NCBI RefSeq assembly: GCF_055900595.2
Contig: NZ_CM148325.1
DNA length: 64,000 nt
Strand: one strand, 5' to 3'
The position numbers are program-made. Below are positions 23,101 to 26,100 of this stretch, piece after piece. The first letter of the stretch is position 1; each line of letters begins with the position of its first letter.

Positions 23101-26100
23101 ACAAAATATTGTTGATAAGACATGGTTAGGTGGTGAGCTGCCTCGGAAAATATGACGACAGTAATGATTTCTAAGAGATTTGAAATGCGTTGATAACAAA
23201 ATCTGAAATATAGGAGTCTGTTTAGGATTGTGTGTAAATGCCTTTTCTCAAAAGTAACCGTCCAGGCGGTCACTGAATCCGATAATAAAGCGGCTTATTG
23301 CCATACCCCAGTCCTTCAACGGCATCGTCCATTTCGGGGACGATGCCTGTATTGCCAGACACACCACTTTTTTCACCGGCTCGTCTGTCGGAAACACTTA
23401 CGCTTTTTGATCGCATGGCGGATCACGCTGTTTAGCGACCCGATGGCATTCGTCAGCGACAGCGACGACTCTTACCGCTGGAACGAAGTGGATAAGCGCT
23501 TCAGTGTCGACGACACGCCGAACGAGCCGAACCGCTTCGGCTGGGTGGGGGAAATCGATCCATATGGTTATTTTTCAGAAAATAATGAGAACATCTGTGC
23601 TTTATATAACCAGATAAAACCACGCAATAAGCATAAATATTACAGGTGATAATACTTTTATTTATCACTTCGGTTATATTCAATAAACATAATAACTTTC
23701 TCTTAAATCACAGGTCCAGCCATTGCAGTTGTTATCAGACGTAGATTAGGATGCCAGTGCATTTACATGGGATGGTTTGTGTATCCACCGGGTATAATGC
23801 GTGATATCATTAATTTCAACACTAACTGTGCGATTGTCTTTCATGCCTGCCCTCCGGGCAGGCTTTTTTCTGCATGCAGAAAAAAATCACCGGAAAAAAC
23901 GGCAGCAGATAAAAAAGAGTGCTGACAGGGATATTATTTCATCCGCTCACTAGCGAGATGATAAACGTTGCTACGTTCACGTTTACCTACTGCGACTACC
24001 GCAATAATTAACATATCATCAATAACCTGATAAACAAGACGAATGAATCGCCACAGGTTTAATAGACACCTCAGAGTCATTTAAGATGACTTAAAGAGAG
24101 GTGCCCATGAGCGGTAAGCGTTATCCCGAAGAGTTTAAAATTGAAGCAGTCAAACAGGTTGTTGATCGCGGTTATTCTGTTGCCAGCGTTGCAACACGTC
24201 TCGATATCACCACCCACAGCCTTTACTCCTGGATAAAGAAGTACGGTCCGGATTCTTCCACTAATAAAGAACAGTCAGATGCTCAGGCCGAGATCCGCCG
24301 TCTCCAGAAAGAGCTGAAGCGGGTTACCGACGAACGGGACATATTAAAAAAAGCCGTTGTAGATTCAATTGGTCAACGCAACAGTTATGTGAAAACATGG
24401 GGTTGCAGAGGTTTTTTGAATGAGACGAACATTTACAGCAGAGGAAAAAGCCTCTGTTTTTGAACTATGGAAGAACGGAACAGGCTTCAGTGAAATAGCG
24501 AATATCCTGGGTTCAAAACCCGGAACGATCTTCACTATGTTAAGGGATACTGGCGGCATAAAACCCCATGAGCGTAAGCGGGCTGTAGCTCACCTGACAC
24601 TGTCTGAGCGCGAGGAGATACGAGCTGGTTTGTCAGCCAAAATGAGCATTCGTGCGATAGCTACTGCGCTGAATCGCAGTCCTTCGACGATCTCACGTGA
24701 AGTTCAGCGTAATCGGGGCAGACGCTATTACAAAGCTGTTGATGCTAATAACCGAGCCAACAGAATGGCGAAAAGGCCAAAACCGTGCTTACTGGATCAA
24801 AATTTACCATTGCGAAAGCTTGTTCTGGAAAAGCTGGAGATGAAATGGTCTCCAGAGCAAATATCAGGATGGTTAAGGCGAACAAAACCACGTCAAAAAA
24901 CGCTGCGAATATCACCTGAGACAATTTATAAAACGCTGTACTTTCGTAGCCGTGAAGCGCTACACCACCTGAATATACAGCATCTGCGACGGTCGCATAG
25001 CCTTCGCCATGGCAGGCGTCATATCCGCAAAGGCGAAAGAGGTACGATTAACATAGTGAACGGAACACCAATTCACGAACGTTCCCGAAATATCGATAAC
25101 AGACGCTCTCTGGGGCATTGGGAGGGCGATTTAGTCTTAGGTACAAAAAACTCTCATATAGCCACACTTGTAGACCGAAAATCACGTTATACGATCATCC
25201 TTAGACTCAGGGGCAAAGATTCTGTCTCAGTAAATCAGGCTCTTACCGACAAATTCCTGAGTTTACCGTCAGAACTCAGAAAATCACTGACATGGGACAG
25301 AGGAATGGAACTGGCCAGACATCTAGAATTTACTGTCAGCACCGGCGTTAAAGTTTACTTCTGCGATCCTCAGAGTCCTTGGCAGCGGGGAACAAATGAG
25401 AATACAAATGGGCTAATTCGGCAGTACTTTCCTAAAAAGACATGTCTTGCCCAATATACTCAACATGAACTAGATCTGGTTGCTGCTCAGCTAAACAACA
25501 GACCGAGAAAGACACTGAAGTTCAAAACACCGAAAGAGATAATTGAAAGGGGTGTTGCATTGACAGATTGAATCTACAACAGCGTATTTTGCACAGGAGT
25601 CGCTGAAAAATACGCGTTAATCGAACAATGGCGACAACAATTTCCCATTGAAGCGATGTGTCAGGTATTTGGTGTATCCAGGAGCGGTTATTACAACTGG
25701 GTACAGCATGACCCCTCAGACAGAAAACAAAGTGATGAGCGGCTAAAACTGGAGATTAAGGTGGCACATATCAGCACTCGCGAAACATATGGAACCCGCG
25801 GCTCCAGACGGAGCTGGCAGAGAATGGCATCATCGTTGGTCGTGACCGACTGGCACGTCTTCGTAAGGAGCTAAGGCTACGCTGTTAGCAGAAACGCAAG
25901 TTCAGAGCGACTACGAACTCGAGCCACAATCTGCCAGTTGCGCCAAATCTGCTGAACCAGACGTTCGCTCCTACAGTACCAAATCAGGTCTGGGTGGCGG
26001 ACCTGACGTATGTTGCCACACAGGAGGGATGGTTGTACCTCGCTGGCATCAAAGATGTTTATACGTGCGAAATTGTCGGCTACGCCATGGGAGAGCGCAT

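Follow-up and report, generated by a model that had tools for sequence, protein, structure and literature searches.

Type II toxin-antitoxin modules in which a RelE/StbE toxin is paired with a Phd/YefM protein (RelBE/StbDE-like) are found on plasmids beside IncF replication regions. In the stretch of E. coli chromosome analysed here (64,000 nucleotides, referred to as the window), a stub matches residues 61-95 of their intact toxin, but the window keeps 35 codons of it and none of the start, promoter, antitoxin or replication region. The small unit next to the stub resembles the intrinsic terminators that stand between convergent units, with which it shares a GC-rich 8-bp stem, a 3-nt loop, a T6-T8 tail and a tail-to-tail pairing with the 3' end of a toxin operon via a common A/T palindrome. 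It differs from a plain intrinsic terminator in that the 76 nt upstream match the hairpin in strength of conservation, more than termination by itself would call for. With short plasmid regulatory RNAs (FinP, CopA, Inc/RNAI, Sok) it has in common a predicted length of ~65 nt, a terminator hairpin with a U tail and a backbone site near the replication/maintenance region. Unlike those RNAs, to which it has no sequence or covariance-model similarity, it lacks a conserved promoter, lies outside the repA leader and has no overlapping target gene, the antisense ORF not being conserved. Type I loci of the hok/sok kind likewise combine a small ORF antisense to a putative short RNA with a ribosome-binding site in a hairpin, whereas the ORF found here is hydrophilic and has no conserved start codon, frame or Shine-Dalgarno sequence. 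Positions 23560-24043 of the window are a fossil of an IncF plasmid maintenance backbone within an argW-tRNA island, and the locus is genomic debris: a relic of plasmid origin that retains a conserved terminator module but no functioning toxin-antitoxin system. Our best overall explanation, to which we assign a probability of about 0.6, is an IncF backbone fossil with a dead RelE stub and a separate unit that serves as a transcription terminator or insulator.

The plasmid origin can be read from gene order. RefSeq annotation of identical chromosomal loci places the RelE stub between argW, an integrase gene and aatA on one side and csc and dsd genes on the other. One strain with the identical locus is E. 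coli 6EVA (NZ_CP138428.1), in which the small unit occupies plus-strand positions 3,020,105-3,020,181. The autotransporter adhesin gene aatA lies on the plus strand and its stop is at 23073. On intact plasmids, aatA (plus strand) is followed by a spacer of ~770 nt containing gene debris and by a module of ~100 nt that ends in a plus-strand terminator; beyond the module, convergent on the minus strand, lie the relE/stbE toxin gene, the phd/yefM antitoxin gene, oriR and repA. A preliminary description of this DNA had suggested a search for intact homologous loci in the same context, and two such loci were found on IncF plasmids (L002 and L003, 97.7% and 91.6% identical to the window sequence). 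Both carry aatA, the same spacer, a 95-aa RelE, an 83-aa Phd/YefM and an IncFII repA. Since these intact loci keep the same order and spacer, the relic is real, and this part of the argW island (aatA, spacer, terminator module and relE 3' end) is a copy of maintenance DNA from IncF plasmids. PhoX-like debris sits in the spacer between aatA and the small unit and is also present on IncF plasmids; one frame of a slightly wider segment (23450-23575) gave no Pfam match. The published paper on aatA describes its 3' flank with IS elements only.

Translation of minus-strand positions 23937-24041 gives RLVYQVIDDMLIIAVVAVGKRERSNVYHLASERMK, followed by a stop codon at 23934-23936, and this peptide is 100% identical to the corresponding residues of the intact toxin in L002. 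The preliminary description had reported the last 34 codons of a RelE/ParE-type toxin on this strand; homology bears out the remnant but corrects the count to 35. An intact homologue scores above cut-off against both Pfam PF05016 (ParE_toxin, 7.5e-15) and TIGR02385 (RelE_StbE, 4.4e-8), and the stub alone reaches 17.6 bits with the family profile (E = 0.006), under the 23-bit cut-off. The N-terminal 60 residues and the start codon are gone; a complete toxin ORF of ~90-95 aa with its own start is absent from the window, and the sole ATG-initiated frame over the stub (23934-24080) begins within the IS end. On the plasmids the antitoxin gene lies upstream of the toxin gene and overlaps its start. 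No cognate antitoxin gene is present upstream of the stub in the window, where the far side of the IS holds a protease-gene fragment and not relE. Because the 35-codon stub has no start codon, promoter or antitoxin, the toxin-antitoxin system in this chromosome is dead. PGAP already marks the stub as a pseudogene in identical chromosomes; it is incapable of acting, and the locus alone is of little importance.

Table 1. Features at the plasmid-derived locus and the adjoining insertion sequences, in window coordinates.
Feature	Position	Strand	Basis or remark
PhoX-like 'alkaline phosphatase' gene, internal fragment	23452..23565	+	Pseudogene annotation in identical RefSeq chromosomes
Core upstream of terminator; body of putative sRNA	23769..23844	+	93-99% identity; single copy
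-10-like hexamer TATAAT, perfect, without -35	23793..23798	+	Sequence; chance-level frequency
Rho-independent terminator, GCCTGCCC-TCC-GGGCAGGC then T6	23845..23869	+	Hairpin scan, folding, comparison
Perfect 22-nt palindrome TTTTTTCTGCATGCAGAAAAAA	23864..23885	.	Self reverse-complement match; common to both convergent 3' ends
Weak terminator-like hairpin with T7, downstream of relE stop	23888..23904	-	Hairpin scan; same site in IncK L008
relE/stbE toxin relic, last 35 codons and stop	23934..24041	-	Homology to intact plasmid RelE; PGAP pseudogene
IS3-family (IS911-like) element, left end and 5' part of orfA	24044..24345	+	Alignment to intact loci, ORFs, RefSeq annotation
IS30, inserted into the IS3-family element	24346..25590	+	Inverted repeats, transposase ORF, annotation

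The stub and the small unit had been taken together as possible remains of one toxin-antitoxin module. Comparison separates them. The core and terminator, ~100 nt in all, adjoin three unrelated toxin-antitoxin cassettes in IncF and IncK2/Z plasmids: the intact RelE-Phd/YefM cassette (L002, L003), a DUF1778/GNAT cassette (L007, L009) and a toxin-first RelE/ParE cassette with its antitoxin (L006, L008, L010). In L004 and L005 the unit abuts Tn3-family/IS26 insertions. Moreover, the intact module is of type II, its Phd/YefM antitoxin lies upstream of the toxin on the side now under the IS, and the small unit, convergent to the toxin, is on its downstream side. Since it occurs with other cassettes, the unit formed by TATAAT and terminator is a separate backbone module and not an antitoxin; on plasmids, the toxin-antitoxin slot beside oriR is swapped as a cassette between two conserved flanks.

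Sequence identity in the core was scored in the IncF and IncK2/Z lineages, the others appearing equally conserved by eye, and both of its flanks diverge between lineages until they are unalignable. L009 has only 23769-23869 in common with the window, GNAT-type plasmids diverge directly after the T-run, and in a metagenome variant (L019) a deletion joins upstream DNA directly to GGTATAAT. Neither a second copy of the core nor similarity to the repA control region was found. A low-stringency blastn search of plasmids returned 243 records with the unit, about 200 of them aatA-type IncF plasmids, and 100,044 species-representative genomes contained no homologue. Scanning metagenomes with only the terminator as anchor yielded 21 loci, every one with the same core. 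The known range of the unit is thus about 240 enterobacterial plasmids and the argW island. A plain terminator does not explain why 76 nt upstream of it should be 93-99% conserved beside unalignable flanks; the family is young, however, all copies being at least 93% alike, so the conservation could reflect shared ancestry and mosaic recombination instead of selection.

The strong terminator claimed in the preliminary description is well founded: its stem (23845-23852/23856-23863) has eight pairs, seven of them G-C, and its T6 occupies 23864-23869. A 66-nt RNA spanning 23805-23870 folds at -18.5 kcal/mol (z = -3.7), a value equalled by none of 200 shuffled sequences. The stem is kept in 30 homologues with a single change, G-C to G-U, and the loop reads TCC, GGA, ACA or GGT; judged from this pattern of a conserved stem and a freely varying loop, the terminator looks functional. 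It is the sole plus-strand terminator-like hairpin found by scanning downstream of the aatA stop. On either strand the palindrome that starts with its T-run folds into another hairpin, and the minus-strand hairpin beyond it probably marks where the former toxin-antitoxin operon ended. Our preferred reading, a terminator or insulator, gives these elements a plausible job: rightward transcripts from aatA or from spacer promoters would be halted by the unit and so kept from running antisense into the toxin-antitoxin, oriR and repA region, and the plus-strand terminator would stand back-to-back with the toxin operon's 3' end. Against this reading, IncK2/Z plasmids have no plus-strand gene upstream of the unit, its neighbour there being a divergent ProQ/FinO gene; if the terminator is used in these plasmids, transcription must therefore start within about 280 nt.

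The unit may give rise to a small RNA. Taken as a small-RNA gene in its own right, carried by IncF/IncK plasmid backbones and acting on some target, an explanation we regard as a tentative second choice, the unit would start ~7 nt after the TATAAT (around 23804-23806) and stop at the hairpin and T6, giving a product of 64-66 nt with an unstructured AU-rich 5' part followed by the terminator hairpin; the chromosomal copy would then be either a fossil or an orphan that is still expressed. A TATAAT roughly 50 nt before the terminator had been pointed out in the preliminary description, and the hexamer is indeed there, a perfect -10 sequence 46 nt from the hairpin, suitably spaced from a strong terminator. 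The segment common to almost all variants (L009, L019, GNAT-type plasmids) runs exactly from this -10 through the terminator, and the body is conserved as noted above. Against this, there is no acceptable -35 or extended -10 (TG), the promoter scan passed over the site, and TATAAT occurs 34 times in the window compared with 36 +/- 6 in shuffles; the hexamer is present in aatA-type and some GNAT-type IncF copies but every IncK2/Z copy, and L009 from a GNAT-type IncF lineage, shows GAAAAT and has lost 1 nt. On sequence grounds the promoter evidence is weak. In addition, L010 has a 28-nt deletion within the putative RNA body. Rfam searches of the window and an IncK copy at permissive thresholds gave generic sub-threshold matches only: MicF, Hrs12 and GadY at 16-22 bits on the unit, a weak likeness to enterobacterial sRNAs that falls far under the thresholds and with no family assigned, and IS009 at 18 bits elsewhere in the window. 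Complementarity to the 5' regions of aatA, phd, repA, ProQ/FinO and toxin genes is at shuffle level (z +0.1 to -1.1), no perfect antisense match longer than 11 nt exists among neighbouring genes except on the unit's own opposite strand, and strings from its sequence occur in no paper of the searchable literature. Homologues do not extend beyond the plasmids and the island, all copies are at least 93% identical and the one stem change among them is the G-U pair, so the alignment offers no covariation. A long upstream hairpin in the minimum-free-energy fold (23743-23818) was discarded (z = -1.8; the IncK copy has a different 5' arm and the same 3' arm, with no compensation). A more specific proposal is that the 79-nt segment from the -10 hexamer to the terminator (23791-23869) is a genuine small RNA, not described before, which IncF and IncK2/Z backbones have kept intact while the cassettes on either side of it were repeatedly exchanged. 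Plasmid chaperones of the FinO-domain type might handle such an RNA, and the copy here would be a chromosomal orphan; we consider this proposal rather unlikely. Were the segment transcribed, the few small RNAs listed for F-like and I-complex plasmid backbones would gain a member, and its target would be worth finding. FinO-domain proteins bind terminator hairpins with U tails (PMC7491321, PMC9674577), and in L004, L005, L008 and L010 a gene of the ProQ/FinO family (207 aa; Pfam ProQ, 1e-15) starts on the other strand about 230-280 nt from where the unit begins; L007 has the same gene at about 740 nt. That the unit is a dedicated RNA ligand or regulator of this divergently transcribed chaperone (FopA/YafB-like) in IncK2/Z plasmids is nevertheless improbable: the aatA-type IncF plasmids, about 200 of the 243, have no adjoining ProQ/FinO gene, the unit was not detected in ~2,700 IncI-type plasmids with yafB/FopA homologues (about 52% identity), and it has no complementarity to the chaperone mRNA leader. 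The top ligands in published FopA RIP-seq data were Inc, STnc1590, mgtM and STnc700, with nothing adjoining fopA.

Two further readings carry very little weight. It might be the RNA partner of the RelE stub (an RNA antitoxin) or an antisense regulator of a toxic peptide on the opposite strand, as in type I or III systems, which would make the 260 bp one degraded module. The unit is indeed 65 nt from the relE stop, and a 32-aa minus-strand ORF (23746-23844) begins beside the hairpin, carries GGAGG in the hairpin loop and is fully antisense to the putative RNA. RelE/StbE toxins are of type II, however, the intact homologues having Phd/YefM protein antitoxins, and the unit is found both with unrelated cassettes and without any. 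The ATG of the ORF is ATA in L003, L007 and L009, its C-terminus is frameshifted between lineages, GGAGG is lost where the plus-strand loop is GGA, ACA or GGT, and tandem repeats of the type III kind are absent. This RNA-partner reading appears already contradicted by the comparative data, and we give it very little credence. A search of 5.8 billion proteins matched the ORF only at the same locus and with ragged ends, so that the 32/44-aa frame, with its unconserved start, was also rejected, both as a gene and as what is left of a ribbon-helix-helix antitoxin. No more credible is a small protein encoded by the conserved core, either by this minus-strand ORF or by a plus-strand ORF from ATG 23797 (MRDIINFNTNCAIVFHACPPGRLF...). 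Every copy has that ATG, and among the few substitutions two (GAT/GAC, GCG/GCA) are synonymous in its frame, but the plus-strand ORF has no Shine-Dalgarno sequence, passes through the terminator hairpin and T-run, ends at varying positions with C-termini unrelated between lineages, and loses 28 nt in L010; protein searches gave no Pfam domain, and their only hits were ragged-ended ORF calls specific to this locus. It was set aside for its run across the terminator and its variable C-termini.

Other kinds of site were considered at the unit. A partial minus-strand match (GTGTTGAAATTAA) suggested a Tus-binding Ter site, for which an invariant GTTGTAAC core within AGNATGTTGTAACTAA was required; nothing within three mismatches is present at the unit, and true GTTGTAAC cores are located in the plasmid oriR region. 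Comparison by eye gave no convincing match to a Xer/cer-like or IHF site at the unit.

The preliminary description had also proposed that the 5' part of the toxin gene was replaced by an IS terminus, and alignment with the intact plasmid loci agrees: plasmid homology ends at 24043 and the IS end begins at 24044 with TGAATCGCC... The IS3-family element, whose orfA ATG is at 24107, removed relE up to and including codon 60, counted from the toxin start, together with phd/yefM and the plasmid replication region. The IS30 copy within it is bounded by 38-nt inverted repeats (24346-83 and 25553-90) and contains a transposase ORF of 383 aa (24420-25571).

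The 76-nt core, the adjoining hairpin and its T-run form a unit that we aligned across the window, nine plasmid loci and 21 metagenome loci. Among the scored lineages its identity is 93-99%, with conservation visibly as high in the rest, and its flanks differ or cannot be aligned across plasmid and metagenome loci. On its right lies a Phd/RelE cassette in the window lineage and in the IncF plasmid loci L002 and L003; a DUF1778/GNAT cassette starting directly after the T-run in L007, L009 and L025; in L006, L008 and L010, a toxin-first RelE/ParE and antitoxin cassette behind a relE 3' relic that is independent and more diverged; and in L004 and L005, an insertion just past the palindrome, either a Tn3-family end or IS26. 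On its left, most IncF copies carry aatA and debris, IncK2/Z copies have a ProQ/FinO-family gene (207 aa) that points away from the unit at a distance of about 230-280 nt, and L009 has an unrelated helix-turn-helix gene. Since the neighbours vary on both sides, the unit is not part of the RelE module but a backbone piece bordering a slot where toxin-antitoxin cassettes are exchanged. The preliminary description, whose features are all confirmed in the sequence, had tentatively joined unit and toxin relic into one module, a pairing that does not hold given these neighbours and an antitoxin that was a protein.

Coordinates of features in the window
Feature	Position	Strand	Detail
aatA, 5' ORF	18238-20316		
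IS10, complete	20279-21607		1,329 bp; 9-bp target duplication TGCTCGGCA (region 20270-21616)
aatA, 3' part	21607-23073		stop at 23073
PhoX-like alkaline phosphatase internal fragment; frameshifted hypothetical-gene fragment	23452-23565; 23230-23450		spacer between aatA and unit
32-aa ORF	23746-23844	-	start adjoins hairpin; GGAGG within loop
Conserved core	23769-23844	+	
TATAAT	23793-23798	+	
Terminator hairpin	23845-23863	+	GCCTGCCC-TCC-GGGCAGGC; loop 23853-23855
T6	23864-23869	+	
Perfect 22-nt palindrome	23864-23885		TTTTTTCTGCATGCAGAAAAAA; first half is the terminator T-run
Weak terminator-like hairpin and T7	23904-23888	-	opposite direction to + terminator
RelE stub	23937-24041	-	RLVYQVIDDMLIIAVVAVGKRERSNVYHLASERMK; stop 23934-23936
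Chimeric 48-aa ORF	23934-24080	-	MTLRCLLNLWRFI + RLVYQV...
IS3-family, IS911-like left end	from 24044		TGAATCGCC...; orfA ATG at 24107
IS30, inside IS3-family element	24346-25590		38-nt inverted repeats; transposase ORF 24420-25571

The 30 best-matching E. coli chromosomes share 99.8-100% identity with the segment 23560-24045, and 84 records reach 99% or more; over 200 plasmids match it at 90-98%. Its chromosomal setting is an island at the argW tRNA gene. The order there runs from yfdC through tRNA-Arg, an integrase and further genes to an autotransporter gene of 3,498 bp, after which come pseudogene debris, the RelE pseudogene, IS elements and finally csc and dsd genes. We judge the autotransporter gene to be aatA from its length and context (PMC2944236). 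In the window it is split by IS10; in identical islands of other strains it is intact (3,498 bp). The IncF plasmids of L002 and L003 also carry this aatA and spacer, and beyond them, all intact, a toxin gene of the RelE/ParE family (95 aa), an antitoxin gene that overlaps it (Phd/YefM, 83 aa) and an IncFII oriR/repA region. Because both spacer fragments also occur on the IncF plasmids, the debris is older than the transfer to the chromosome.

The toxin-antitoxin relic is genuine. The minus-strand RelE/ParE stub noticed earlier is present, at 35 codons rather than 34, and its translation agrees exactly with residues 61-95 of the L002 toxin, which matches Pfam ParE_toxin (7.5e-15) and TIGR02385 RelE_StbE, both over cut-off. 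A search for intact homologues of the locus in this setting, as had been suggested, found them in L002 and L003; the gene of the original antitoxin lay upstream of the toxin gene, in the part now lost from the window. RefSeq already annotates the stub as a pseudogene. It is translatable only through the chimeric ORF, which runs in frame from an ATG within the IS end and is probably meaningless.

Homology between window and plasmids stops at 24043. Beyond the IS lies a protease-gene fragment rather than the remainder of relE, so the loss was an IS-associated deletion or rearrangement and not a simple insertion. No inverted repeat matching the left end of the IS3-family element was found up to 26700, and its right end may be degraded or hybrid. 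IncK2/Z plasmids have their own, more diverged relE 3' relic (...AVGERGNVYTLASERMK to the stop; L008 3245-3376, also in L006 and L010) separating the unit from a different toxin-antitoxin cassette, and a 16-bp perfect hairpin follows it at L008 3356-3391. Truncation of the RelE gene took place independently on plasmids and in the chromosome, and this slot beside oriR is one where toxin-antitoxin cassettes are swapped.

The hairpin is strong, with seven G-C pairs among the 8 of its stem, and the 66-nt RNA 23805-23870 folds at -18.5 kcal/mol (z = -3.7), equalled by none of 200 shuffles. The stem is identical in all 30 copies but for a single C-to-T change giving G-U, and the 3-nt loop is TCC, GGA, ACA or GGT by lineage (in the window, L002, L003, L007 and metagenome loci). 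With its constant stem and variable loop, the hairpin behaves as a selected structure would. GGA is the exact reverse complement of TCC, a pair that looks like loop inversion through intra-hairpin recombination. The hairpin is oriented for the + strand alone, because the minus-strand reading continues into AUGAAAGAC, and no other + strand terminator-like hairpin turned up in the stretch scanned past the aatA stop. This hairpin, the minus-strand site and their common palindrome make a tail-to-tail arrangement, typical of convergent units. We infer that its role would be to halt rightward transcription ahead of the toxin-antitoxin/oriR/repA region. As a terminator module it is ordinary in kind.

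Whether the unit is also an independent RNA gene of about 65 nt is a separate question, and we consider this unlikely. A perfect -10 precedes the hairpin by 46 nt, the 76 nt directly before the hairpin are highly conserved, and -10 to terminator is exactly the segment that almost all variants have in common: homology in L009 is limited to 23769-23869, divergence in the GNAT-type plasmids begins right after the T-run, and a deletion in the metagenome variant L019 (about 10540-10625) joins ...AAATCACAGG directly to GGTATAAT with this segment retained. However, TATAAT alone is not significant (34 in the window vs 36 +/- 6 in shuffles); it has no usable -35 or TG extension, was not called by a promoter scan, and becomes GAAAAT with a 1-nt deletion in L009 and all IncK2/Z copies, while L010 (3040-3050) lacks 28 nt of the putative RNA body. 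No Rfam family matches the unit, its sequence has no trace in the searchable literature, and its complementarity to the 5' regions of aatA, phd, repA, the ProQ/FinO gene and the other toxin is not above shuffles. The family is also shallow and narrow, with 243 plasmids of Escherichia, Salmonella, Shigella and Klebsiella, 21 near-identical metagenome loci and no match in 100,044 representative genomes, so its conservation may reflect recent common descent. A new backbone sRNA of IncF/IncK plasmids is slightly more doubtful still; the sRNA stands as an unproven candidate without a proposed target.

Other readings of the unit were tested too. Three lineages have ATA in place of the start ATG of the minus-strand 32-aa ORF, whose frame also differs between lineages; its GGAGG comes and goes with loop orientation, and all its matches among 5.8 billion proteins are same-locus calls with ragged ends, so this ORF is not a gene. 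A + strand ORF from 23797 passes through the terminator and has lineage-specific C-termini. A link to a FinO-domain chaperone is limited to the small IncK2/Z lineage; most unit copies have no such neighbour, the unit is missing from about 2,700 plasmids that encode yafB/FopA homologues, and the FopA study reported no fopA-adjacent RNA among its ligands. Resemblance to a Tus Ter site is partial and breaks down in the core, which is invariant in such sites. True GTTGTAAC cores are located in the plasmid oriR, as is known for R1-type IncFII origins, in a region wholly absent from the window; two or three of them, facing both ways, separate the toxin-antitoxin cassette from repA in L002 (4168-4509) and at equivalent positions in L007, L008, L009, L010 and L015.
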